Notes: generated by a model not told the origin, from the sequence alone. A stretch of 64,000 nt of DNA from Eledone cirrhosa (GCA_964016885.1 OZ024746.1:57660001-57724000); one strand, 5' to 3'. Shown: positions 10,990 through 57,563, numbered from the stretch's first letter. Program-made: numbers and translations.

Positions 10990-11557
10990 AACATTGCCAG
11001 GGAACGTCTCCACGAACCACCTAAATAGACCATAAAGGTGGTTTTGTCTTTGCGTGTAATTGTTCTCCCCGATCCACATAATGACGTATTATCTTCGTTT
11101 TTTCCGTTCATTGCTAGGGAACCTGTCCTCGAACCAAAGTATCGTTTTCCTGTCTTTCTTCGGTTGCAACGTTTTTCGAAATATTTACTTCTGCGTTCAC
11201 AGATTAATTTTTTTTAGTTTCAGTAGATCCCATTAAGGGTGAAAGCAGCGATTCTTTGCTTAAACATTAATCCGTTATATTAATAAATATTTGCTCTACG
11301 ATTCTTATATATTTGATATATATTTATCCTTATCCACCCTTTTATATATATATATATATATAGTGTTCTCATCGCTCCAAATAATTGTTTCTACTTTTTG
11401 GCACAAGGCCAGTTATTACCCAGTACATTACTGGTACTTTATTTTATCGACCCCGTAGGGATGAAAGGCAGTTAACCTCGGGACGTATTTTAATGTTATT
11501 TTAATAAATATTTGCTCTACGGTTTTATATATTTTATATATATTTATCCTTATCCAC

Positions 11558-13220: not shown

Positions 13221-13511
13221 TTAATAATAATAAAAATAAAAATCCATCGCCCTTTAATAATAATAAAAATAAAAATGAAATTAATAATAAGGTTAAAAAT
13301 GAAAGTAAATCAGAAAAGGTAGTCTTAAAGAGAATGATTTAAGTGAAGAATAAGAGCTTATGGAGGATAAGTATCTGAAAGTGTGTTAAGTTTATATGAG
13401 CTGGAAAGCAGGTGTGATTTCATGTGTGGGCAACTGGTGAAAATTTCTGTCTTAGTGTTTAGGCATGTATATATATATATATATTAATATATATACACAC
13501 ATATATATATG

Positions 13512-13607
<96 letters not shown>

Positions 13608-13707
13608 AATATAGACATAGAATATTCGAAAATATTCTGTATGTTTATAATAAACATTTTGAAGACCTAATCGCTATAGAATAGAATACGTCACGTATTA
13701 CAATTAG

Positions 13708-13796
13708 ATTCTCGATAAAAGCAAGGGAAGTAATCTACGCGTTTCATTCTTGTTAGAATTCATCAGGACCACATATCCAGTGCTTTTATCGAGAAT
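13708..13796 (-). ncRNA. Type I hammerhead, first of 11 minus-strand copies (every 310 bp)
   Basis: Reverse complement of the motif described at 17070-17158. Confidence 0.88.
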
Positions 13797-16700
13797 GACA
13801 CAGCTAGAGACTTATAGAATACTTAGCTGTGTACAGGAACTGGTTTGAAAGAGCGGTTGCCGGTCCGGCAGAAATTAGAAATTGGAATAAATGCTCTGAA
13901 ATAGCGATATATATGTGAATATAGACATAGAATATTCGAAAATATTCTGTATGTTTATAATAAACATTTTGAAGACCTAATCGCTATAGAATAGAATACG
14001 TCACGTATTACAATTAGATTCTCGATAAAAGCAAGGGAAGTAATCTACGCGTTTCATTCTTGTTAGAATTCATCAGGACCACATATCCAGTGCTTTTATC
14101 GAGAATGACACAGCTAGAGACTTATAGAATACTTAGCTGTGTACAGGAACTGGTTTGAAAGAGCGGTTGCCGGTCCGGCAGAAATTAGAAATTGGAATAA
14201 ATGCTCTGAAATAGCGATATATATGTGAATATAGACATAGAATATTCGAAAATATTCTGTATGTTTATAATAAACATTTTGAAGACCTAATCGCTATAGA
14301 ATAGAATACGTCACGTATTACAATTAGATTCTCGATAAAAGCAAGGGAAGTAATCTACGCGTTTCATTCTTGTTAGAATTCATCAGGACCACATATCCAG
14401 TGCTTTTATCGAGAATGACACAGCTAGAGACTTATAGAATACTTAGCTGTGTACAGGAACTGGTTTGAAAGAGCGGTTGCCGGTCCGGCAGAAATTAGAA
14501 ATTGGAATAAATGCTCTGAAATAGCGATATATATGTGAATATAGACATAGAATATTCGAAAATATTCTGTATGTTTATAATAAACATTTTGAAGACCTAA
14601 TCGCTATAGAATAGAATACGTCACGTATTACAATTAGATTCTCGATAAAAGCAAGGGAAGTAATCTACGCGTTTCATTCTTGTTAGAATTCATCAGGACC
14701 ACATATCCAGTGCTTTTATCGAGAATGACACAGCTAGAGACTTATAGAATACTTAGCTGTGTACAGGAACTGGTTTGAAAGAGCGGTTGCCGGTCCGGCA
14801 GAAATTAGAAATTGGAATAAATGCTCTGAAATAGCGATATATATGTGAATATAGACATAGAATATTCGAAAATATTCTGTATGTTTATAATAAACATTTT
14901 GAAGACCTAATCGCTATAGAATAGAATACGTCACGTATTACAATTAGATTCTCGATAAAAGCAAGGGAAGTAATCTACGCGTTTCATTCTTGTTAGAATT
15001 CATCAGGACCACATATCCAGTGCTTTTATCGAGAATGACACAGCTAGAGACTTATAGAATACTTAGCTGTGTACAGGAACTGGTTTGAAAGAGCGGTTGC
15101 CGGTCCGGCAGAAATTAGAAATTGGAATAAATGCTCTGAAATAGCGATATATATGTGAATATAGACATAGAATATTCGAAAATATTCTGTATGTTTATAA
15201 TAAACATTTTGAAGACCTAATCGCTATAGAATAGAATACGTCACGTATTACAATTAGATTCTCGATAAAAGCAAGGGAAGTAATCTACGCGTTTCATTCT
15301 TGTTAGAATTCATCAGGACCACATATCCAGTGCTTTTATCGAGAATGACACAGCTAGAGACTTATAGAATACTTAGCTGTGTACAGGAACTGGTTTGAAA
15401 GAGCGGTTGCCGGTCCGGCAGAAATTAGAAATTGGAATAAATGCTCTGAAATAGCGATATATATGTGAATATAGACATAGAATATTCGAAAATATTCTGT
15501 ATGTTTATAATAAACATTTTGAAGACCTAATCGCTATAGAATAGAATACGTCACGTATTACAATTAGATTCTCGATAAAAGCAAGGGAAGTAATCTACGC
15601 GTTTCATTCTTGTTAGAATTCATCAGGACCACATATCCAGTGCTTTTATCGAGAATGACACAGCTAGAGACTTATAGAATACTTAGCTGTGTACAGGAAC
15701 TGGTTTGAAAGAGCGGTTGCCGGTCCGGCAGAAATTAGAAATTGGAATAAATGCTCTGAAATAGCGATATATATGTGAATATAGACATAGAATATTCGAA
15801 AATATTCTGTATGTTTATAATAAACATTTTGAAGACCTAATCGCTATAGAATAGAATACGTCACGTATTACAATTAGATTCTCGATAAAAGCAAGGGAAG
15901 TAATCTACGCGTTTCATTCTTGTTAGAATTCATCAGGACCACATATCCAGTGCTTTTATCGAGAATGACACAGCTAGAGACTTATAGAATACTTAGCTGT
16001 GTACAGGAACTGGTTTGAAAGAGCGGTTGCCGGTCCGGCAGAAATTAGAAATTGGAATAAATGCTCTGAAATAGCGATATATATGTGAATATAGACATAG
16101 AATATTCGAAAATATTCTGTATGTTTATAATAAACATTTTGAAGACCTAATCGCTATAGAATAGAATACGTCACGTATTACAATTAGATTCTCGATAAAA
16201 GCAAGGGAAGTAATCTACGCGTTTCATTCTTGTTAGAATTCATCAGGACCACATATCCAGTGCTTTTATCGAGAATGACACAGCTAGAGACTTATAGAAT
16301 ACTTAGCTGTGTACAGGAACTGGTTTGAAAGAGCGGTTGCCGGTCCGGCAGAAATTAGAAATTGGAATAAATGCTCTGAAATAGCGATATATATGTGAAT
16401 ATAGACATAGAATATTCGAAAATATTCTGTATGTTTATAATAAACATTTTGAAGACCTAATCGCTATAGAATAGAATACGTCACGTATTACAATTAGATT
16501 CTCGATAAAAGCAAGGGAAGTAATCTACGCGTTTCATTCTTGTTAGAATTCATCAGGACCACATATCCAGTGCTTTTATCGAGAATGACACAGCTAGAGA
16601 CTTATAGAATACTTAGCTGTGTACAGGAACTGGTTTGAAAGAGCGGTTGCCGGTCCGGCAGAAATTAGAAATTGGAATAAATGCTCTGAAATAGCGATAT

Positions 16701-17069
16701 ATATGTGAATATAGACATAGAATATTCGAAAATATTCTGTATGTTTATAATAAACATTTTGAAGACCTAATCGCTATAGAATAGAATACGTCACGTATTA
16801 CAATTAGATTCTCGATAAAAGCAAGGGAAGTAATCTACGCGTTTCATTCTTGTTAGAATTCATCAGGACCACATATCCAGTGCTTTTATCGAGAATGACA
16901 CAGCTAGAGACTTATAGAATACTTAGCTGTGTACAGGAACTGGTTTGAAAGAGCGGTTGCCGGTCCGGCAGAAATTAGAAATTGGAATAAATGCTCTGAA
17001 ATAGCGATATATATGTGAATATAGACATAGAATACACAGCTAAGTATTCTATAAGTCTCTAGCTGTGTC

Positions 17070-17158
17070 ATTCTCGATAAAAGCACTGGATATGTGGTCC
17101 TGATGAATTCTAACAAGAATGAAACGCGTAGATTACTTCCCTTGCTTTTATCGAGAAT
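17070..17158 (+). ncRNA. Type I hammerhead, first of 4 plus-strand copies (predicted cleavage after 17130, 17440, 17752, 18062)
   Basis: Distal stem I ATTCTCGATAAAAGCA/TGCTTTTATCGAGAAT (16 bp), internal loop, proximal stem I GTGGTC/GATTAC, CTGATGA, stem II ATTCT-AACA-AGAAT, GAA-ACGCGT-A. Confidence 0.9.
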
Positions 17159-18221
17159 CTAATTGTAATACGTGACGTATTCTATTCTATAGCGATTAGG
17201 TCTTCAAAATGTTTATTATAAACATACAGAATATTTTCGAATATTCTATGTCTATATTCACATATATATCGCTATTTCAGAGCATTTATTCCAATTTCTA
17301 ATTTCTGCCGGACCGGCAACCGCTCTTTCAAACCAGTTCCTGTACACAGCTAAGTATTCTATAAGTCTCTAGCTGTGTCATTCTCGATAAAAGCACTGGA
17401 TATGTGGTCCTGATGAATTCTAACAAGAATGAAACGCGTAGATTACTTCCCTTGCTTTTATCGAGAATCTAATTGTAATACGTGACGTATTCTATTCTAT
17501 AGCGATTAGGTCTTCAAAATGTTTATTATAAACATACAGAAAATATTTTCGAATATTCTATGTCTATATTCACATATATATCGCTATTTCAGAGCATTTA
17601 TTCCAATTTCTAATTTCTGCCGGACCGGCAACCGCTCTTTCAAACCAGTTCCTGTACACAGCTAAGTATTCTATAAGTCTCTAGCTGTGTCATTCTCGAT
17701 AAAAGCACTGGATATGTGGTCCTGATGAATTCTAACAAGAATGAAACGCGTAGATTACTTCCCTTGCTTTTATCGAGAATCTAATTGTAATACGTGACGT
17801 ATTCTATTCTATAGCGATTAGGTCTTCAAAATGTTTATTATAAACATACAGAATATTTTCGAATATTCTATGTCTATATTCACATATATATCGCTATTTC
17901 AGAGCATTTATTCCAATTTCTAATTTCTGCCGGACCGGCAACCGCTCTTTCAAACCAGTTCCTGTACACAGCTAAGTATTCTATAAGTCTCTAGCTGTGT
18001 CATTCTCGATAAAAGCACTGGATATGTGGTCCTGATGAATTCTAACAAGAATGAAACGCGTAGATTACTTCCCTTGCTTTTATCGAGAATCTAATTGTAA
18101 TACGTGACGTATTCTATTCTATAGCGATTAGGTCTTCAAAATGTTTATTATAAACATACAGAATATTTTCGAATATTCTATGTCTATATTCACATATATA
18201 TCGCTATTTCAGAGCATTTAT

Positions 18222-18267
<46 letters not shown>

Positions 18268-18268
18268 T

Positions 18269-18626
18269 AGATCAAAAGATGGTTAAAAGAGTTCCATATA
18301 TTTTATTATAGGGAGAAATGATATGAAGGTTAAAACACACTTGTGAATAGTGCACTTTTAAATTTTAAATATGTTGATTTAAAACTGCACTATTCACAAG
18401 TGTGTTTTAACCTTCATATCATGTCTCCCTATTTCATCTGACGAAAACGCAAATGTTATTGCATGATGATATTTGTTTTTGAAATGCCCATAATAAAATA
18501 CATGGAACTCTTTTAACCATCTTTTGATCTTATATATTATTTATACTCCAGTCCTACAAACTGTAGAGTGCTTCTTATCCGATATCTGCATTGCTTTATT
18601 GTACTACAATAAAACTCACCTCCTAC
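18269..18626 (+). mobile_element. Short palindromic non-coding HHR element (second copy 47219-47600)
   Basis: Inverted arms around ~18360-18380. HHR at 18430-18500: TATTTCAT-CTGACGA..GAAATGCCCATA-ATAAAATA. (TA)n flanks. Confidence 0.8.
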
Positions 18627-25875: not shown

Positions 25876-25892
25876 TAGTTTTAATATAGATT

Positions 25893-25943
25893 AGATTCTA
25901 CAGGACTAGAACTGTTTCATTCTTTAGAAATCATCAGGAATCT
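25893..25943 (-). ncRNA. Type I hammerhead motif
   Basis: AGATTC-CTGATGA-TTTCTAAAGAAT-GAA-ACAG(TTCTAGTC)CTGT-A-GAATCT. Confidence 0.75.
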
Positions 25944-26495
25944 GGGTATCAAAAAATAAATATGGTATTTATAGGTCTCTACAAGTGGTAGGAGAGGGTG
26001 GGGAGTGGGATGGGTGTAGGTCGTTGGTTGATAGAAAAGGGAATTCATTAAAAGCTAATTCTACAAAGCATAGTTTATTTTTATTAATTTTTGTTTTTAG
26101 AGTAACAAAGGCAGACAGAATTCTATAAACATTCCGGATGGCATACCATTCCTTGTCATTAAGTTTCTCTTAAGCTAACAGATGTATATAAGATCAGTGG
26201 GAGGTCAGTCATGGTAGATAGAATTAAAGGAAAGGGAGATTCTTTAAAAGCTAAATTCATTAAGGTTCTACTAAGTGACAAAGGTTTAGAGAATTCTGTA
26301 GACAGATTCAAAATACTGAGTGCATATCTTACAATTATCTTCGAAATTCTCTTAAACTAATCAACTATATGCCAAAAATCAACAGACACATTAACAAAAA
26401 AACACACTCACTCACACTCTCGCGAGCAACCATAAACACACATACACATACACATATACACACATAAAAACACACACACATATATAAATATATTC

Positions 26496-26577
<82 letters not shown>

Positions 26578-26731
26578 ATACACACATACATATATATACG
26601 CACACACACACACACATATATATATATACATATATATATACACTCACACACATACATACATACACACAAATATACATGTGTAAACATATACATACATATA
26701 CACATAGATATAGATATATATATACACACAC

Positions 26732-26782
<51 letters not shown>

Positions 26783-26842
26783 TAATATATACATACACAC
26801 ACATACATATATATATACAAATATACACACACATACACACAA

Positions 26843-26912
<70 letters not shown>

Positions 26913-26994
26913 TAATATTTGATGAACATTTACATGTTTTAGTTGCAATTGACTAATAAGATCGCTAGAGTGAAAAATCTTAATTCAACAACGT

Positions 26995-28221
26995 TCTGAC
27001 ATCGGCTCTATCAGTAAGAATATCCTGGATAGAGTTCTACCATCATTGCGGGCAGCTTCACCACTTCCACTCTGGAGCAGAACATCTGAGGCAATATCAT
27101 GGTTCTAAAAATTACCCGACAAACACCACACTCGCTTCCTGCAACTCGACATAGAAAACTACTATGCCTCTATCTCGGAGACCCTCCTGAAGGACGCAAT
27201 TAACTTTGCCAGGAATTTTACCAGCATTACCGATGCCGAGCAAGTTGTTATCCTCCACGCTCGTAAGACCTTTCTATACCACGATGGATCTTACTGGATC
27301 AACAAGAAATCTCAGACCCTATTTGACGTTAGCATGGGGGCGAGTGACTCGGCTGAAATTAGCGACCTTGTGGGCCTGTACATCCTACATCACCTGAAGA
27401 ACCTCTTTACCGGCCTAACGGGAGGTTTATACCGAGACGACGGCCTCTTCGCCCTGCAGAAGGTTAACCCCAGAACCACCGATGGGTTTCGGAAAAACTT
27501 AAGCTCTTTCTTCTCTAATCTAGGATTTAGTATAACTATAGAATCTAATTTGACTAGGGCCAACTTCTTAGATGTCACTCTCGACCTAGATACTTCCCTC
27601 TATTACCCGTACCACAAACCTAACGAGTCCCTTAAATATATTAATGTTAATTCAAACCACCCCCAAAACATCACTGATAACCTAGTAAAAAGCGTTTCTA
27701 TTAGAATATCTGGCCTCTCAGCCAACAAAGATATTGTTAATGCATCTGCCTCCTACTACAATGAAGCCCTCGCCCGTAGCGGATTTAAAGATAAGATAAC
27801 TTACCTAGAAACCACCGCAAGATTGCAGAGGAGGAATAGACATAGGCAGATTAGCTGGTACAACCCTCCCTTCAATAGAGAGGTATCTACTCCGATATCT
27901 AGGATTTTCTTCACTTTGCTGAAATTACACTTCCCCATACAACATAGGTACCACACCATCTTTAATAAGAACCCAATAAGACTGTCTTACTCCACCACAC
28001 CTAACCTAGCTAGGAATATAGCCAACCACAATTCTAAAAAATTAAATAAGCCAACCACCTCCGAACCCAATCCCTGCGACCTTTGTATTTCAGAGAGCTA
28101 CGAAATTTTATTCGCCAAAGGCGCGCTACTGAACAAACTCTCTGAACACTGCCCGAACTGCATGCACAAGAAATTTGCAACTTTCAAACACTTTAAGCCA
28201 GTGTTAAAGCCCGATGGCTAA
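26995..28221 (+). pseudogene. PLE reverse transcriptase remnant; GIY-YIG core deleted
   Basis: SDIGSISKNILDR; QLDIENYYASI; FDVSMGASDSAEISDLVG; GGLYRDDGL; NFLDVTLDL; WYNPPF. Jumps directly to the C-terminal CDLCISE..LLNK. Confidence 0.9.
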
Positions 28222-28513
28222 AAACGACCTTCCCCTATTGGCCCCTATACATCCTTCCCACCCCTCCTCAACCTGAAATACGGCCACTATGGTTATGTGA
28301 GTACCTCTTTCCTATCTACATTTTCTGCCTGTAGAGGTGTTTTTATGTGCCTGCGTATATGCGTATATTTATTGCGTACTTATTTATTTGTATGTGTATG
28401 TATTTGTGTGTATGTGTGTATATGTATGTGTATGTATATATATATAGGTATGTGTGTATATGTGTTTTATGTGTGTATTTTTATGTATGTATATGTATGT
28501 ATATATGTATATG

Positions 28514-28570
<57 letters not shown>

Positions 28571-28657
28571 ATATATGTGTATGTATGTGTATGTGTATGT
28601 ATGTATATGTATGTATGCATATATATATATGTATATGTATGTATGTATATGTATATG

Positions 28658-28722
<65 letters not shown>

Positions 28723-28760
28723 ATGTGTGTGTGTGTATATATATGTGTGTGTGTGTGCAG

Positions 28761-28833
<73 letters not shown>

Positions 28834-29092
28834 AGTACCTCTTATATATATGTGAGTACCTCTTATATATATATATGTGAGTACTTCTTTCCTATCTACA
28901 TGTTCTGCCTGTAGAGGTGTTTTTATGTGCCTGCGTATATGCGTATATTTATTGAGTACTTTTTATTCGTATGTGTATATATTTGTGTGTATGTTTATAT
29001 ATATATGTGTATGTATATATATATATGTATGTGTGTATATGTGTTTTATGTGTGTATTTTTATGTATGTATATGTATGTATATATGTATATG

Positions 29093-29155
<63 letters not shown>

Positions 29156-29240
29156 ATATATGTGTATGTATGTCTATGTGTATGTATGTATATGTATGTA
29201 TGTATATATATATGTATATGTATGTATGTATATGTATATG

Positions 29241-29289
<49 letters not shown>

Positions 29290-29366
29290 ATGTGTGTATG
29301 TGTGTGTGTGTGTGTATATATATATGTGTGTGTGTGTGCAGGTGTGTATATATATATATATATGTG

Positions 29367-29445
<79 letters not shown>

Positions 29446-29808
29446 GTGCGTGAGAGAGAGTGTGTGTGTATATATTTGTGTGTGTGTGTATGTGTGTATG
29501 GGTGTATATATATGTATATATGTTTGTATGTAGTATGTATGTGTATGTTTATGTATATGTATATATGTATATATATAGATGTATATATATAGATATATAT
29601 ATATATTTATATATATGCATGTGTATGTGTGTGTGTGTGTGTATATATGTGTATATGTGTGTGTGTGTATATATGTGTGTGTATATGTATGTATGTATGT
29701 ATGTGTGTATGTGTGTTTGTATGTGTGTGTATGTGTGTATATGTATATATGTGTATATATGTTGTGTGTTTGTGTGTATGTGTATATATGTGTGTATATG
29801 TATATTTG

Positions 29809-29883
<75 letters not shown>

Positions 29884-30693
29884 ATATATATATATATATA
29901 TATATATAAACAAGGTTTAGTAAATAATGAAAAAGTTTCAAAATAAATTTAAAAAAATTGACTTTACCTACTATAGTTACCTTTACCGATCGGTTTCGAA
30001 TCCCAAAAATAATACGGAGACCATACGGCCTTCGTTGCAAAGAAAGATTCTCGTCAGAAGGTTCTTTTCATTCAAAGAATATAAAATTCCTGAATTTAAA
30101 TCACAAACTAGCGCTATCAAAAACTGTTCCTGGGATGAGAGTGGATGATGTAGAACAGGTTTATCAAGGGCCGTAGCAAAGATAGAGGCAAAAGGAGGTA
30201 GGTCAAACTAGCCACCGCTATTGCTAGCAGCAGTCGGAATTACCCGGTTTGTTCTCAACGTTAGTGGAGGTAGTAGTAATATGAAATACGTCCCTTCACG
30301 CACAAGGCGCCAAGGTACGCATGTATTGTCCAACCAAGTGCCAATGTGGTTCAATGGCGGGTTAATAAATTAACGAGCCAGAACAAATATAAACAAGGTT
30401 TAGTAAATAATGAAAAAGTTTCAAAATAAATTTAAAAAAATTGACTTTACCTACTATAGTTACCTTTACCGATCGGTTTCGAATCCTAAAAATAAAACGG
30501 AGACCATACGGCCTTCGTTGCAAAGAAAGATTCTCGTCAGAAGGTTCTTTTCATTCAAAGAATATAAAATTCCTGAATTTAAATCACAAACTAGCGCTAT
30601 CAAAACATCATCCACTCTCATCCCAGGAACAGTTTTTGATAGCGCTAGTTTGTGATTTAAATTCAGGAATTGTATATTTTTTGAATGAAAAGA

Positions 30694-30777
30694 ACCTTCT
30701 GACGAGAATCTTTCTTTGCAACGAAGGCCGGATGGTCTCCGTTTTATTTTTGGGATTCGAAACCGATCGGTAAAGGT
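30694..30777 (+). ncRNA. Type I hammerhead with palindromic stem III and long stem II
   Basis: ACCTT-CTGACGA-GAATC..GATTC-GAA-ACCGATCGGT-A-AAGGT. Confidence 0.88.
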
Positions 30778-31176
30778 AACTATAGTAGGTAAAGTCAATT
30801 TTTTTAAATTTATTTTGAAACTTTTTCATTATTTACTAAACCTTGTTTATATTTGTTCTGGCTCGTTAATTTATTAACCCGCCATTGAACCACATTGGCA
30901 CTTGGTTGTACAATACATGCGTACCTTGGCGCCTTGTGCGTGAAGGGACGTATTTCATATTACTACTACCTCCACTAACGTTGAGAACAAACCGGGTAAT
31001 TCCGACTGCTGCTAGCAATAGCGGTGGCTAGTTTGACCTACCTCCTTTTGCCTCTATCTTTGCTACGGCCCTTGATAAACCTGTTCTACATCATCCACTC
31101 TCATCCCAGGAACAGTTTTTGATAGCGCTAGTTTGTGATTTAAATTCAGGAATTTTATATTCTTTGAATGAAAAGA

Positions 31177-31260
31177 ACCTTCTGACGAGAATCTTTCTTT
31201 GCAACGAAGGCCGTATGGTCTCCGTTTTATTTTTGGGATTCGAAACCGATCGGTAAAGGT
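31177..31260 (+). ncRNA. Type I hammerhead, second plus-strand copy
   Basis: Same motif, 483 bp downstream. Confidence 0.88.
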
Positions 31261-31428
31261 AACTATAGTAGGTAAAGTCAATTTTTTAAAATTTACTTTG
31301 AAACTTTTTCATTATTTACTAAACCCTGTTTATATTTGTTCTGGCTCGTTATTAACCCGCCATTGAACCACATTGGCACTTGGTTGGACAATACATGCGT
31401 ACCTTGGCGCCTTGTGCGTGAAGGGACG

Positions 31429-31531
<103 letters not shown>

Positions 31532-31655
31532 TATATATTATGTATGTATGTATGTGTGTATGTGTGTATGTATGTGTGTGTGTGTGTATATATGTATATA
31601 TGTGTATATATGTTGTGTGTGTGTGTATGTGTATATATGTGTGTATATGTATATT

Positions 31656-31760
<105 letters not shown>

Positions 31761-31802
31761 ATATGGGTGTATGTATTTGTGTATATATGTATGTTTGTGT
31801 GT

Positions 31803-31861
<59 letters not shown>

Positions 31862-31880
31862 TATATGTATGAATGGTGTA

Positions 31881-31951
<71 letters not shown>

Positions 31952-32173
31952 ATGTATGGTGCTTTTTCCTTATATATGTGTATATGTGTGTGTGTCTGTA
32001 TATATATATGTATGTATGTGTGTGTATGTATATGTATATATTTGTCTGTGAGTATTGATTTATTATTTTCTAGATCGTACAGGCAGACCTTACGTTGTTG
32101 AATTAAGATGTTTCACTCTAGCGATCTTATTAGTCAATTGCAACTATAACATGTAAATGTTCATCAAATGTTA

Positions 32174-32242
<69 letters not shown>

Positions 32243-32264
32243 TATATGTGTGTGTTTGTGTGTA

Positions 32265-32297
<33 letters not shown>

Positions 32298-32324
32298 GTA
32301 TGTGTGTGTATGTATGTATGTATG

Positions 32325-32380
<56 letters not shown>

Positions 32381-33116
32381 ATATATATATCTATGTGTAT
32401 ATGTATGTATATGTATAACACATGTATATTTGTGTGTATGTTTGTATGTGTGTGAGTGTATATATATATGTGTATATATGTGTGTGTGTGTGTGTGTGTA
32501 TATATATGAATGTGTGTATGTGTATATATATATATATATGTGTATATATATATATATATATGAATATATTTATATATGTGTGTGTGTTTTTATGTGTGTA
32601 TATGTGTATGTGTATGTGTGTTTATGGTTGCGCGCGAGTGTGTGAGTGAGTGTGTTTTTTTGTGAATGTGTCTGTTGATTTTTGGCATATAGTTGATTAG
32701 TTTAAGAGAAGTTCGAAGATAATTGTAAGATATGCACTCAGTATCTTGAATCTGTCTACATAATTCTCTAAACCTTTGTCACTTAGTAGAACCTTAATGA
32801 ATTTAGCTTTTAAAGAATCTCCCTTTCCTTTAATTCTATCTACCATGACTGACCCCCCACTGATCTTATATACATCTGTTAGCTTGAGAGAAACTTAATG
32901 ACAAGGAATGGTATGCCATCCGGAACCTGTTTATAGAATTCTGTCTGCCTTTGTTACTCTAAAAACAAAAATTAATAAAAATAAACTATAACTTTGTAGA
33001 ATTAGCTTTTAATGAATTCCCTTTTCTATCCACCAATGACCTACACACATCCCACTCCCCATCCTCTCCTATCACTTGTAGAGACCTATAAATACCATAT
33101 TTATTTTTTGATACCC

Positions 33117-33167
33117 AGTTTCCTGATGATTTCTAAAGAATGAAACAGTTCTAGTCCTGTAGAATCT
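33117..33167 (+). ncRNA. Type I hammerhead motif in PLE pLTR
   Basis: TTC-CTGATGA-TTTCTAAAGAAT-GAAACAG..CTGTA-GAATCT. Confidence 0.72.
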
Positions 33168-33250
33168 CATCTATATTAAAACTTTCATACTCTGCAATTT
33201 ATTGAGTACCTTACTTACTGTGGTTACCTCCGATTCAACCCGGAATAACG

Positions 33251-37107: not shown

Positions 37108-38130
37108 ACAAAAATGCGTACAGCAAAAAAAAGTAATATTGTTGGAATATAAACCTTTAAAAATACAGGACAAGAAACTAAAATAAAACTTTAAAAGAAT
37201 GGGACAAGAAACTAAGATAAAACTTTAAAAGAATAGGACAAGAAACTAAGATAAAACTTTAAAGAATTGGACAAGAAATAAAAATGTTTACAATAATATT
37301 ATTGGCAACATTTTTTTATTCGTTTCCTGTGCTATGCCCCAGTATCTTCTTGATTAGTGCATAATAATTGTCATGCTCTCATTGTGCGTTGCCCCTGAGC
37401 GGTTGGTTCTGGTTGAGGTTGGTTGGCTGAGCAGTTCTGCTCCGTCAGAATGACCATTGCAAGAAGAATTGGCCGATGCAGCTGCAGGTCTCCTCCAAGA
37501 ATGCACTTCTGGTCCCGCAACACCACACGAAGATGGAGAAGACGACCGGGACAAGATGTCGACTCTGACCACCGACTACGGCACCTCCCTCAACCACCGG
37601 TCCTCCCTCCCTCTGTCCCGTCATCCCTCCAGTCCTCCTGCTCCCCCTTCCTGTACCAGAAAGCTGTGGCACGCATTCATCTGGACTGCCGGACTTGACT
37701 CAAGGACAAGATGCAAGGAGAAGATGGACGGGTTGGTCAAGATCAAGGATCAGCGGGACGACAAGACCGTCCGCTGCTGCTCAAGATCTGTGATCATGGG
37801 CCCATGGGTCCATTCACATTATGCATGACACACGAGGTGTGTCGCCGAATGATGAAATAGGGGTATGGTTATGGCCCAATTGGTGTTCAAACCAGGATCA
37901 AATGATCCCCCCGTCTGACGACGACCTCTGAATGTGGAACTCGATTTTTTACCAATAAAAATGTTGCCACTAATATTATTGTAAATTTTTTTATTTCTTG
38001 TCCAATTCTTTAAAGTTTTATCTTAGTTTCTTGTCCTATTCTTTTAAAGTTTTATCTTAGTTTCTTGTCCTGTATTTTTAAAGGTTTATATTCCAACAAT
38101 ATTACTTTTTTTGCTGTACGCATTTTTCTA
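37108..38130. repeat. Inverted repeats (~37108-37321 / 37954-38130) with ~32-bp internal subrepeats around a GC-rich core
   Basis: GGACAAGAAACTAAGATAAAACTTTAAAAGAAT occurs x3-4 on the left and is mirrored x2-3 on the right. Confidence 0.85.
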
Positions 38131-50384: not shown

Positions 50385-52490
50385 TTCCACGACTCTCTAC
50401 TACTTTACCTCTACTACAATCTTCTCACACCACCTTCTTCTTCTCGCCCGTCTATTTTCACTCCCACCCTAGTACCGTCAATATGCCCAATCTCAAATCT
50501 TTCATCTCCATTCTACTCTCAAGCGCCTCCTCCAACCTCTTCCCCCCCCCCCCATATATATCCAATCCTCCCTGTATCTCTCCAACCTCATCTTCACCAA
50601 AACACGATACAACACATTTTTAAGTCGGTGTCGCCACTACCACCTCATTCCCCGCGGTTTCCGCCTCAAGTTTGCCCCCACCTCTTACTCTGCTCTCACC
50701 ACTGAGCCCATCCTTACTCGCTCCTATCGCCAGCTTATGCGGGTGACCATTCGATCAACTCTCGACGGAGTTCTCCCTAATGTCTACCTCCATCTCTCCT
50801 CCACTTGCCGCCCTTCCCTCGCCCAATCCCTTATCCAATTCATCGTTTACCTCAATCGCCTCCTTTTCAATTTCCTCAATTCCATAAAAAACCACAAACT
50901 CGACTCACTCCGCTCCCCGCCTGCCGTCACCACCCATACTCATATCACCTCCAACCCTAACCTCTCTATCCCGTAACCTACCACCGCCTTTCCTCTCCCC
51001 ACCACTAAATCTGCACACTCTTTGCCCAACCAGCTTGACCCCTCCGCCTCCGCCTCTTTCACTCCTTCACATCCCTGAACTGTAGTCCCCATAACCCAGG
51101 ACCTACCACTCTCCGAAGTTGAGCGCTCCCTCCTCGCCCGTTTCTTGCGTTTTATACCTAACACATCTACCTGCGATGAGTTCCGCACACGTGCCGAGAT
51201 TGAAGGGTACTTCCGTCCATTAAAGCTGAAAACTTTTTTTCACGACACGCCATCATCGACACAGACGGATGACTTCAATCGTCTCAGTCACCGGCAATCA
51301 CATTGGACGCCGAGCTCTGGCCAATTCAGCACCCTCGACTCCTTTGTTGATACTTGCCGGCGTACTGTGAATCGGTTCCGTTTCCACCAGCATTCTCGTC
51401 GTTCTAACATCACAGGAAATGAGCTCTCCGCTCTTCTTAACCTTCGACGTCGTGATGACATTGTCATCAAACCCACTGACAGAGGTGGCGCTGTGGTGGT
51501 TTGGAGCGTACCCCTCTATAGGGCTGAGGCTCTCTGCCAGCTTCACAATACCTCTTTTTACCGCCCTTTATCTTCCGAACCCATGCCTGGCTAACAACAA
51601 CTCGTGTCCTCCACCATCCACGAGCTCATCTCCTCCTCTCTCCTACCCCAACAGCCGCTAACCTTACTATACGCACCCCTCACACACCCACCATCTACTC
51701 CCTCCCCAAAATACACAAAATAATCCTGGCCGTCCTATCGTTTCTGCCCCACCGAGATAATTTCTGAATATTTCGAAACCAGCCTCGCCCAGTTGGTCGG
51801 TTGTCTCCCCTCCCACATCCACGATGCAAATCATGCCCTTAGACACTTCAACACTTTCCCCTTCCCTCCTGATCCCTCCCGCCTTCTCTTTACCCTGTAC
51901 ATGACCTCTCTCTACACCGTCATCGTTCACGATGACGGCCTCCGCGCTCTCCAACATTTTTTTAGATTTACGCCCCACCCCTTACCCCAGCACTATCACT
52001 CTTCCACTCAGCCGTCTGGCTGAGCTTGTTCTCACCCTCAATGGATTTTCTTTTTCGGGTGAATTTTATCAATAGGTCTCTGGGGTAGCGATGGGAACCA
52101 GAATGGGTCCAAACTATGCCAACTTGTTAGTTGGCTACGTCGAAGCCCAGATCTTCGCCCAGTACGTTGGACCGACTCCTGAGCTATGCGGTCGTTATAT
52201 CGACGACTGTATCGGCGCCACTTCCGTATCATGAGAACAGCTCGACTGTTTTCTTTCTTTTGTCCAATATTTCCATCCCTCTCTCAATTTCACCGCCTCC
52301 GTCTCCGATTCTTCTGTCGCTTTTCTAGATATCTCTCTTCCCCTCAATCTATCTTATTTCATTCTTTCTGACTGAGGACTAGTGTCCGAAACGTTAAGAC
52401 CCTCTTCCTATTATATCAAACGTTAACCTAATATATCCCTTCCATATACTGTACCGATAGTGTTGTTACTTCTGTTTACCTTTTACATAT
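50385..52490 (+). mobile_element. Decayed PLE, YIDD-type RT (Neptune-like, tentative), 3' part deleted
   Basis: DIVIKPTDRGGAVVVW; PGRPIVS; GVAMGTRMGPNYANL; RYIDD. Minimal HHR-like motif at 52363-52399. Confidence 0.88.
52363..52399 (+). ncRNA. Minimal hammerhead variant
   Basis: TCTT..CTGACTGA (one extra base)-GGAC-TAGT-GTCC-GAAACGTT-AAGA. Confidence 0.55.
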
Positions 52491-54939: not shown

Positions 54940-55599
54940 GAGAAAAGATGAATATAAAATTAAAATGCTTTTATAAAGGAATTTATAAGGTATTGACATA
55001 TGTTTCTGTAACAGACGGAATACCTATGTATCGCTGATTGCGTAGTCATATAATGTTAGCAAGTATTCGATAGCAAATGTATAATCAGTTGTCACTTCTT
55101 CAGAGATATTGGATAAATTGAAAAAACTCAGAAAAATTGAAGTATTTATATTAGTTGTAAGAAAGGAAGAAGAGAAGGGATAGTATATGACAGATGGCAA
55201 TTCAATTTACTGGTAAATAAGTATATAAAAGTTTCTAATGAGAATACAATGAGTATATGGTTTATTTTATCTAAATAAGAATTTTTGGGAGTGCCTATTT
55301 TAATCTATACTTGACCAATTGAACAATGGACAGGGCTGGTCGTTTGGTGTAGTAGTATTAATAGATATAAAGTGTCAATTAAGGAAGAGGGAGATTTTCA
55401 CTGCTACTGAATAACAACAATGCTGGTAGCCTGCTGGTATATGCATTAGGGAATTGAATTAAGAAATCTCATGTTATCTATAACAGTTTATATTAAATGT
55501 TAAATAATAGAAGAGTTGATAGAATTAAGACTAATAGAGAATGTTAATATGTATTGTGACAATCAAACGGAGATGGAGACAGGCGTTCAATCCTGGTAG

Positions 55600-57035
55600 T
55601 GTTTGTAATATGAAAATGTAGATTTCAAGCGATGGTTACAGTATAACTATCGCTCTATTCTGTTATTTAATAAAATATTTTTGGATTTCATAATACAAAA
55701 TAATTCCATATTACACAATTTACAAATTTCCTGTCCGTTAGTAATGCAGGTGACGCTATTATATCCCATTTTAGGTTAAATTGTTGGTTATTTTCGCGCA
55801 GCTGCCAAGCCTTGTCTGCGAGTGTTGTTACATAACGCTGGTTTTCATGTTTTATCGAGTAACGATGTCTATAAAGGCGAGATTTGAAGGAGGTAATTGT
55901 AGACCCCACATAGTACCACTTCTGGCTATCCGATTCGATAGTACATTTGTATATGATGTTGCGTTCAAGACACTGATTGTTCAACGGCACATTCCTGGTT
56001 GGACACAGTTACAGTTATAATTTTGCGTTGTTGTATTGACATGGATGGGTTGATGAGGTTGCTTAGGTAGGACGGGATGTTGTTTGTTGTTTTGGGATTT
56101 TATAGCCGATGCTTTACGTGTATTGTTATGTGCTGGAAGGCGTTTATACAACCGTTTTGCGTTAAGCTTTTTTATATGTTGTTCAATATTAGGGGCGGTT
56201 GAATATGAAAGTCGAATAGTGTTAGGGTTTAAGATTTTATTATATTTATGTGATGTTGGAAAGTGTTTTTTAACTAATCGAAAGAATTGTGAGGGTAAAT
56301 TGGTTTTAATAGAGTTGTTATAGACCGGGTTGTACCATATATACTCTTTACATCGCATTCTGTTTGTTGGTGTGCGACTATTAGTGTGTCTATTGCGGTA
56401 GTGTATGTATGGTGGTGATTCTATGCTATTTCTAACTCTATGAGATTTATTTTGGGTGTTTTCGTGGTCGTCGACTATATACTCTATATTATCTAGGTGT
56501 CCAGCCTTCCTAAGTGCATCATCATAATATTCTGCATGTTCTTTGAAGGTTTGCTGGTTGGACGACAGGCGGGAGATTCTAAGGGAAATATTTCTAGGGA
56601 TGGATTTAATTATAGATGGTGGAGGGTTAGAACCCGTATTTACATATTTAAGGTACTCATTTAGTTTATGGAACGGTTTAATCGTTTCTGTATTGAGATT
56701 CAAAGTAACATCAAGGAAATTAACCTCTTTGAGGTTATATTCAAATGTAATATTTAATCCTAGTTCCTTAAAAAGCTTTCTGATATGTTTACGCATCCTT
56801 TCTAAATTCTGGTTATTCATATGCTTAACTAATAAGAGCACATCGTCACGGTAGATTCCACCGTGGAGATCCTTGAATTTTCCTTGTAGTCTGTAGGTGA
56901 TATAAATTCCCACAAGATCAGTTACTTCCGCCGAATCATTGGAACCCATAGTAATATCAAAATTAGAAGGTCTATCTTTGCGAACCCAGTAGCTATCATC
57001 AAATTTAACAATAGTTTTCCTCGCTTCCATAATAA
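55600..57035 (-). pseudogene. PLE RT + GIY-YIG, 5'-truncated and frameshifted
   Basis: FDITMGSNDSAEVTDLVG; GGIYRDD; NFLDVTLNL; WYNP; CNC..PLNNQCLERNIIYKC..YYVGST..FKSRLYRH. Confidence 0.92.
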
Positions 57036-57563
57036 TAACCATCGCTTGAAATCTACATTTTCATATTACAAACACTACCAGGATTGAACGCCTGTCTCCA
57101 TCTCCGTTTGATTGTCAAAATACATATTAACATTCTCTATTAGTCTTAATTCTATCAACTCTTCTATTATTTAACATTTAATATAAACTGCTATAGATAA
57201 AATGAGATTTCTTAATTCAATTCCCTAATGCATATACCAGCAGGCTACCAGCATTGTTGTTATTCAGTAGCAGTGAAAATCTCCCTCTTCCTTAATTAAC
57301 ACTTTATATCTATTAATACTACTACACCAAACGACCAGCCCTGTCCATTGTTCAATTGGTCAAGTATAGATTAAAATAGGGACTTCCCAAAATTCTTATT
57401 TAGATAAAATAAACCATATACTCATTGTATTCTCATTAGAAACTTTTATATACTTGTTTACCAGTAAATTGAATTGCCATATGTCATATACTATCCCCTC
57501 TCTTCTTCCTTTCTTACAACTAATATAAATACTTCAAATTTTCTGATTTTTTCAATTTATCCA

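Follow-up and report, generated by a model that had tools for sequence, protein, structure and literature searches.

Head-to-head arrays with two fixed outer ends in a young hammerhead retrozyme family of Eledone cirrhosa, and their likely origin by double target priming

The window analyzed here, a 64,000-nucleotide stretch of the Eledone cirrhosa genome (GCA_964016885.1 OZ024746.1:57660001-57724000), harbors two arms of a 310-bp hammerhead-bearing unit joined head to head within (TA)n, and this layout is the rule of a whole family rather than a peculiarity of one locus. By every feature testable from sequence, the family is a young, non-coding and non-autonomous non-LTR retrozyme family, the architecture, copy number, end positions and haplotype pattern of which were observed directly. 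The best explanation, which we consider likely as a whole scheme, is double target priming on a retrozyme circle by a (TA)n-targeting EN+ Penelope-like (PLE) protein.

The array in the window is adjoined by (TA)n at both outer ends. Its parts are listed below, with unit positions numbered from the first nucleotide after the predicted cut.

13468..13604, no strand: left (TA)n target tract, the last 8 nt of which double as unit positions 132-139
13597..17034, minus strand (ribozyme sense): left arm, 3438 bp, 11.09 units, outer (3') end at 139, inner end at 112
17033..17034, no strand: head-to-head junction, a 2-nt microhomology, the overlap common to both arms
17033..18227, plus strand: right arm, 1195 bp, 3.85 units, inner end at 213, outer (3') end at 165
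17131..17440, plus strand: one cut-to-cut 310-nt monomer, the predicted circle
17228..17247, plus strand: 8-bp hairpin, unit 98-117, just upstream of the proposed first priming site
17247..17269, plus strand: degenerate (UA)n tract, unit 117-139, proposed annealing site for the (TA)n target end
17270..17302, plus strand: tail, unit 140-172, between both proposed priming sites
18226..18264, no strand: right (TA)n target tract

A previous sequence-only reading had described two opposed arms of 310-bp units in (TA)n, with copies identical except for a 2-nt insertion near 17541. Both descriptions were confirmed, as the arms comprise 11.09 and 3.85 units, and 12 of the 13 complete cut-to-cut units are identical, the other being the 312-nt unit that carries this insertion. 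Fifteen CTGATGA cores (11 minus, 4 plus) are present, and the right arm extends 26 nt past unit position 139 as a tail. The unit is non-coding, its longest stop-free stretch being 59 codons.

The hammerhead motif consists of a CUGAUGA core and GAA-ACGCGU-A with a predicted cut after GUA, so that CUGANGA, GAAA, NUH and three stems are all found. The anatomy of one copy is as follows.

17070..17158, plus strand: one type I hammerhead, predicted cut after 17130
17070-85/17143-58, plus strand: distal stem I (16 bp)
17094-99/17131-36, plus strand: proximal stem I (6 bp, two G-U)
17100-06 and 17121-24, plus strand: core
17107-20, plus strand: stem II (5 bp)
17124-29, plus strand: palindrome

The stems, core and palindrome proved to be as first described, except that the supposed internal loop contains a further 3-bp helix. 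The predicted folding energy of the circular monomer is -67.9 kcal/mol (z = -4.5 versus 60 dinucleotide shuffles). In a lone unit, stem III has only 2 bp; when two copies are cofolded, a double hammerhead is predicted in which stem III joins both molecules by 6 bp (-70.7 versus -62.8 kcal/mol for two monomers). The type I hammerhead is thus predicted by folding to be most stable as a dimer, and dimer action has been described for hammerhead motifs with such a stem III (PMC4209133). A search of the window with Rfam returned no match at the gathering score; the best match, Hammerhead_HH9, scored 21.5 bits (E 0.0074), whereas its cut-off is 52, and thus Rfam recognizes the ribozyme weakly. Two observations count against the scheme proposed below: the stem II closing pair is A-U or U-U instead of the usual G-C, and in vitro cleavage was absent in eight of nine predicted Xenopus retrozymes (10.64898/2026.07.22.740005). 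Among stem substitutions, pairing is kept in 5 of 6 locus-wide changes versus 1 of 10 single-unit ones (one-sided Fisher about 0.008, hand calculation), and none of the 22 locus-wide variants falls in the 12 core positions, a result that is weak alone, fewer than one being expected. These substitution patterns support selection on the ribozyme pairing.

The 3.0-Gb genome contains 17,233 occurrences of a ribozyme 16-mer (control 0), corresponding to at least 5.3 Mb, and the junctions of unit positions 165 and 139 with (TA)n occur 1017 and 1371 times, respectively (control 0 for each). At about 10 units per locus, 17,233 copies amount to roughly 1,400-1,700 loci, and a large satellite block is therefore unneeded. 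Within-array variation at the unit level is 0.05%. These counts, together with 60 examined loci, upheld the suggestion of young, dispersed hammerhead multimers with a Penelope-type insertion signature. The expectation of variable permutation was correct for the dispersal and for the inner ends, which vary, and incorrect for the outer 3' ends, for which two fixed sites are used. A single-locus or ordinary satellite was rejected, given over a thousand sites of about 10 units each with fixed ends. The two-armed loci contain unit sequence alone between TA tracts, with no LTR and no RT/GIY-YIG ORF inside them, and the pLTR of a coding PLE was likewise rejected. Beside 12 single-arm loci, no joined RT/GIY-YIG ORF was found; one of these loci is without inner flank, and another (L126) gave short weak matches. 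A Neptune-type neighbor at L101 was tried as a chimeric second arm, and this reading was dropped because the piece lies across a 200-N gap.

The outer ends of the arrays follow a strict pattern. In a first sample of 20 loci taken by similarity alone (the window plus 19 from the 150 listed of 437 matches), 17 were two-armed and head to head, with one outer end at 139 and one at 165 or 170; in the remaining three, one second arm was cut short at 209 and two single arms ended at 165. Exactly one 139 end was present in all 45 simple two-armed loci (a set leaving out L118 and L123, which overlap or duplicate other loci), and the partner lay at 165-172 in 44 of them (165 in 31, 170 in 9, 172 in 3 and 168 in 1, with one cut short); as 40 of the 60 examined loci were picked by one end, for those only the partner end is informative. 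The first 198 Mb of C1 contain 72 tail ends, and for 51 of these a 139 end in head-to-head orientation lies no more than 20 kb away, versus 0.5% expected by chance; no tail end is paired with another tail end, and the lone apparent 139-139 pair on C1 represents two neighboring insertions. Eighteen of the first 20 C1 tail ends proved two-armed, one reached a gap and one belonged to an arm of more than 22 units. Among the first 20 of the 49 unpaired 139 ends, 13 have an inverted arm ending at 166-172, which implies that about four in five 139 ends are two-armed, and 7 are single-armed, which is counted against double priming. All three insertion marks of PLEs are present, namely an inverted 5'-truncated copy, a one-sided tail bounded by two internal end sites and a (TA)n target bias, and the tail of 26-33 nt is at or just under the published 30-40.

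The ends and joins also carry traces of priming. At unit position 131, 36 of 53 terminal 139 copies have a target T in place of the unit C131, versus none of 522 internal copies, suggesting that a (TA)n end annealed across the UA-rich tract and overwrote this position. The polarity of the arms is that expected from extension of both 3' ends of a cut target on sense RNA, which points to target-primed first strands. The 8-bp hairpin next to the first site is kept in a sister family (family D, below) with a compensatory change and may be considered a candidate RT-binding element. The inner ends are uniform along the unit (KS p 0.96 and 0.30; 45 loci). Microhomology of at least 2 nt was found in 19 of 34 clean joins versus 18% expected (p 7e-7), 9 of 43 measurable joins being inserted or complex and left out of this test. 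In one join (L097), the 16-bp distal stem I provides the pairing, as expected of two cDNAs of the same sense.

For cleavage, the circle, the enzyme and the order of steps, we infer the following scheme. The arrays would be transcribed, and the tandem hammerheads would cut as dimers to release 310-nt monomers, which, as in known retrozymes, would be ligated into circles. A (TA)n-targeting EN+ Penelope-like protein, most likely of the Hydra clade, would bind this RNA and cut both (TA)n strands; one DNA 3' end would anneal to the UA-rich tract and prime at unit position about 139, and the other would prime 26-33 nt further 3' (165-172). The two first-strand cDNAs would then roll round one template for less than 1 to more than 22 turns, and their free ends would meet via a few complementary bases and be filled in, generating head-to-head arms. 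Counted against the scheme is that two polymerases sharing a small circle would have to displace one another. That the loci record double rolling-circle TPRT, with a dimeric PLE, two fixed sites, a single ribozyme-made 310-nt circle and strand displacement at both active sites, seems to us an even chance. If so, the retrozyme circle would be a real transposition intermediate, and the inverted pLTR and one-sided tail of all EN+ PLEs would reflect an ordered two-site reaction.

Judged by the haplotypes, the template behaves like one unit copied many times, probably a circle. Twenty-one haplotypes were distinguished among 52 loci, 16 of them seen once, and all markers were common to both arms in 35 of 36 testable loci, the 36th being an ambiguity of gap placement. 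None of 105 inner ends lies at the cut site (5.1 expected), and 532 crossings of this site contain 4 errors versus 2.7 expected; linear monomers are thus unlikely templates. Four of the 52 loci depart from a single haplotype, namely L037, with an off-type unit among its 6, L103, with one variant repeated 5 units apart, L104, with two variants repeated 7 units apart and T13C once per arm, and L129, with one single-unit variant in each arm. For these loci, oligomeric templates, conversion or later duplication are needed, and their fit to occasional oligomeric templates keeps alive the alternative that PLE double priming used uncut linear multimeric transcripts of long arrays (or oligomeric circles), with the ribozyme incidental to insertion. 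We regard this alternative as unlikely. It would accommodate the variants of L104 that recur 7 units apart, the single-unit variants in both arms of L104 and L129 and the one off-type unit in six of L037, and it agrees with the tandem arrangement of coding PLEs in this genome (L147, 3115-bp period) and with the use of unprocessed RNA by PAc, for which cleavage is not required in vitro (PMC11167929). However, the unit number of such a template would limit the product, yet the 16 once-seen haplotypes fill whole arrays in both arms. No single-unit variant is common to loci of the same haplotype, and the two shared ones occur on different backgrounds, although the power of this comparison is low. 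Moreover, locus-wide changes respect ribozyme pairing, and only 4 of 45 arms with a 139 end have their inner end within 160-176 (about 2.5 expected), with no stop at the start of the other arm.

The other alternatives fare worse than linear multimers. Growth in place of short PLE-type insertions, by slippage or unequal crossover, is improbable here, although local growth was proposed for vertebrate retrozymes (bioRxiv 10.64898/2026.07.22.740005) and the repeats 5 and 7 units apart in L103 and L104 are such as block duplication gives. Array length is independent of internal divergence (rho 0.07, p 0.64, 49 loci), 21 of the 49 loci are without any unit-level variant, including arrays of 4-5.5 kb, and arms exceed two units each in 33 of 45 two-armed loci. 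In addition, the arms of the older family D are short (1-2 units; loci chosen by best single-unit match). Head-to-head palindromes have also been read as self-priming (PMC3846280), in which case a single priming would be followed by fold-back, the second arm being a copy of the first. The inner ends are no more than 7 nt apart in 5 of 45 junctions (2.2 expected), as fold-back would give, but the other 40 junctions are asymmetric and the second arm has its own fixed end site. Since a copy cannot outgrow its template, and the longer arm is the 139 arm in 23 loci and the tail arm in 22 of 45, fold-back copying is excluded as far as these loci allow, and we give it very little credence. A fold-back artefact of assembly or library has a negligible chance: the loci are known from the assembly, in which a gap separates two copies of one locus (L111 and L123), L101 breaks off at a gap and the flank sequence of L117 is mirrored, but flanks are unmirrored in 41 of 42 scorable loci (3 of 45 having no flank to score), and the end difference is fixed, the haplotypes are locus-specific and the old family D has the same layout.

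Double target priming is further supported by sister family D and by resident Hydra-clade PLEs. Family D has a 314-nt unit, about 71% identical, with 3096 candidates and copies 92-95% alike, and its end sites at 140 and 167 are equivalent to the two sites of the main family. Among 21 loci of family D, six pair a 137-141 end with a 167-171 end and two pair 169-176 with 128; most of the others are single or damaged. In L155, both ends may be of the short type. Its ribozyme has different letters but the same fold, with a non-palindromic stem III. Pair counts between the main family (A) and family D were limited to four helices, as MAFFT misaligned stems I and III, and three double changes were found in the stem II pairs and the hairpin before the priming site, within one family contrast only. 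In family B, which has a 468-nt unit, the end sites are 232 and about 300. Intact Hydra-clade PLEs of the 758- and 714-aa families have two end sites about 69-72 nt apart in TA-rich repeats, with one end site per arm in the window's own copy, L085, L173, L175 and L176. The difference between these tails and the 26-33 nt of the retrozyme is counted against the scheme. Four coding PLE families (758-, 781- and 714-aa Hydra-type and one Neptune-type) were compared with the unit, a fifth, older family being left out; in these four, no sequence in common with it was found outside the ribozyme, which is also counted against the scheme, and none was assignable as partner. The ribozyme core and stem II of the 758-aa Hydra family match the common T287 haplotype except for a 2-nt insertion. 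The wider alignment scores 41 versus a shuffle maximum of 55, and the 758-aa tail fits family B better than the main family; this family is therefore not assignable as the partner. The six PLE fragments of the window gave nothing meaningful against Pfam.

In L1 twin priming, two target ends prime two cDNAs that are joined head to head with microhomology, and the second site is variable and marks the stopping point of the first cDNA. In the retrozyme, by contrast, both sites are fixed, and each cDNA would pass the site of the other many times. The present family resembles metazoan non-LTR retrozymes (Cervera and de la Pena 2020, PMC7229834), which are likewise low in GC and present in thousands of copies, with non-coding units of 170-400 nt in tandem, each carrying one type I hammerhead that has a short palindromic helix III; for these elements, reverse transcription of a circle into tandem cDNA was proposed. 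The consulted part of that report gives no insertion anatomy and does not decide between a LINE and a PLE as partner, whereas two fixed sites, (TA)n, inverted arms and one haplotype per locus are found here. EN+ PLEs of the Hydra clade (Craig et al. 2021, PMC8557442) have an inverted 5'-truncated copy, a tail at one end, a (TA)n bias and a hammerhead, the first three also being reported in PMC3846280 and PMC8969392, and the non-autonomous head-to-tail Chlamys elements (MRC1) are a precedent (PMC8557442). Unlike those PLEs, the retrozyme has no ORF, its arms are multi-round concatemers and its tail is shorter than in the local Hydra families. In PAc, the Anolis PLE of the Poseidon group (Frangieh et al. 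2024, PMC11167929), the tail is set by two neighboring internal sites at which reverse transcription starts; as proposed here, these sites lie 3' of the hammerhead, the enzyme cuts both target strands and extends them, the target is AT-rich and the protein is a predicted dimer. PAc showed neither a strand difference in start site nor homology to the target, whereas each retrozyme insertion combines both kinds of site and the first appears base-paired to (TA)n. Initiation by PAc is not homology-guided and uncut RNA is its main substrate in vitro (PMC11167929), both of which are counted against our scheme. Vertebrate retrozymes have likewise been regarded as non-autonomous PLE sequences, on the basis of co-occurrence and pLTR homology and with arrays attributed to local amplification (Li et al. 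2026, 10.64898/2026.07.22.740005); the arrays here seem to have been long from the start, and pLTR homology appears confined to the ribozyme.

The retrozyme class and its PLE link are known or proposed, and the ordered two-site, two-armed and multi-round insertion is the addition of this study. Neither two-armed, fixed-end retrozyme insertions nor a cephalopod retrozyme were found in the openly available literature, including the consulted part of PMC8490949 for the two-armed layout; subscription papers, supplements (Figure S9 of PMC7229834) and Repbase may bear on this. Whether PLEs mobilize retrozyme circles and how PLEs form tandem or inverted ends and tails were named as open points in PMC7229834 and PMC8557442, respectively. 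In this family, a single reaction on a 310-nt template has left more than a thousand nearly unaltered products; as the priming sites are precisely located, the target is known and the same genome encodes intact candidate enzymes, both points become testable in a tube. The family also speaks against local growth as a general explanation for retrozyme arrays, and it illustrates how a genome can quickly gain long inverted repeats, here about 5 Mb.

The unit was also looked for outside this genome. The metagenome contigs searched gave no match. Between 68 and 96% of the words of the unit are contained in 20 public runs (17 studies, 18 organism labels), none of them recorded as RNA, and the plain reading of these occurrences under other labels is trace host DNA or cross-contamination, which supports no model in particular. 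Three of the runs yielded one closed 310-nt contig each, with A276 and A287, no loose ends and a depth of 10-26, at which a circle and tandem DNA look alike; it is highly doubtful that these closed single-haplotype contigs represent the circle itself moving between hosts.

The 310-nt retrozyme is one of several hammerhead-bearing repeat families in this genome. A second retrozyme family of 468 nt (L084:8285-9374, with further copies at loci L041, L077 and L123) likewise carries a palindromic stem III and shares the head-to-head layout of the 310-nt family, and its tail, the stretch between the two end sites, is about 69 nt long and equals that of the 758-aa Penelope-like element (PLE). In a third hammerhead-bearing repeat family (L037:5839-9901; L068, L069, L115 and L128), stem II has a U-U pair at its base; upstream of the ribozyme lies ATGCAAAT, an octamer-like motif.

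Coding PLEs, considered as possible partners of the retrozyme, are also found in the window, as follows.

About 25880-33250: member of the 758-aa Hydra-type PLE family, inserted as two arms, with ends at +61 and +128
Near 25937, minus strand: ribozyme of this insertion
Near 33123, plus strand: ribozyme of this insertion
29904-31335: near-perfect inverted repeat of 702 bp, within the span of the 758-aa family insertion
50473-52400: partial Neptune-type PLE; a hammerhead lies near 52371
55122-57552: 517-nt inverted arms flanking a partial member of the 781-aa Hydra-type family

The 781-aa family forms tandems, despite the fact that a pattern search found no canonical hammerhead in it. A younger Neptune-type family (L086-L091 and L124) likewise terminates in (TA)n and, in L124, has a tail of about 36 nt; it is therefore a further candidate for the partner of the 310-nt retrozyme.

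Within the 310-nt unit, numbered from the predicted cut, the block best conserved between this family (family A) and its 314-nt sister, family D, spans positions 170-236 (window 17300-17366). This block lies directly upstream of the ribozyme and has a TATA-like stretch at its end; it is a candidate internal promoter.

Independent arrays were found only about 7 kb (G000:C1:15423557-15438407) and 1.1 kb (L104/L118) apart, which suggests that the 310-nt array insertions cluster locally. Loci L111 and L123, with identical junction and variant, represent one insertion present twice, flanking an assembly gap. Single closed 310-nt contigs were obtained from three public sequencing runs (X3, X15 and X20) under three different organism labels, and all are of one haplotype, which is a minority haplotype in the Eledone cirrhosa assembly.

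Other repeats were observed in the window besides the array (13597-18227). A small nested inverted-repeat element (18265-18530) adjoins the array on the right; at 37149-38089 lies a terminal-inverted element that contains 34-bp subrepeats. A SINE-like repeat is present in three copies (near 11437, 13083 and 19080), two of which flank the array, and the same repeat interrupts the second arm at locus L040.
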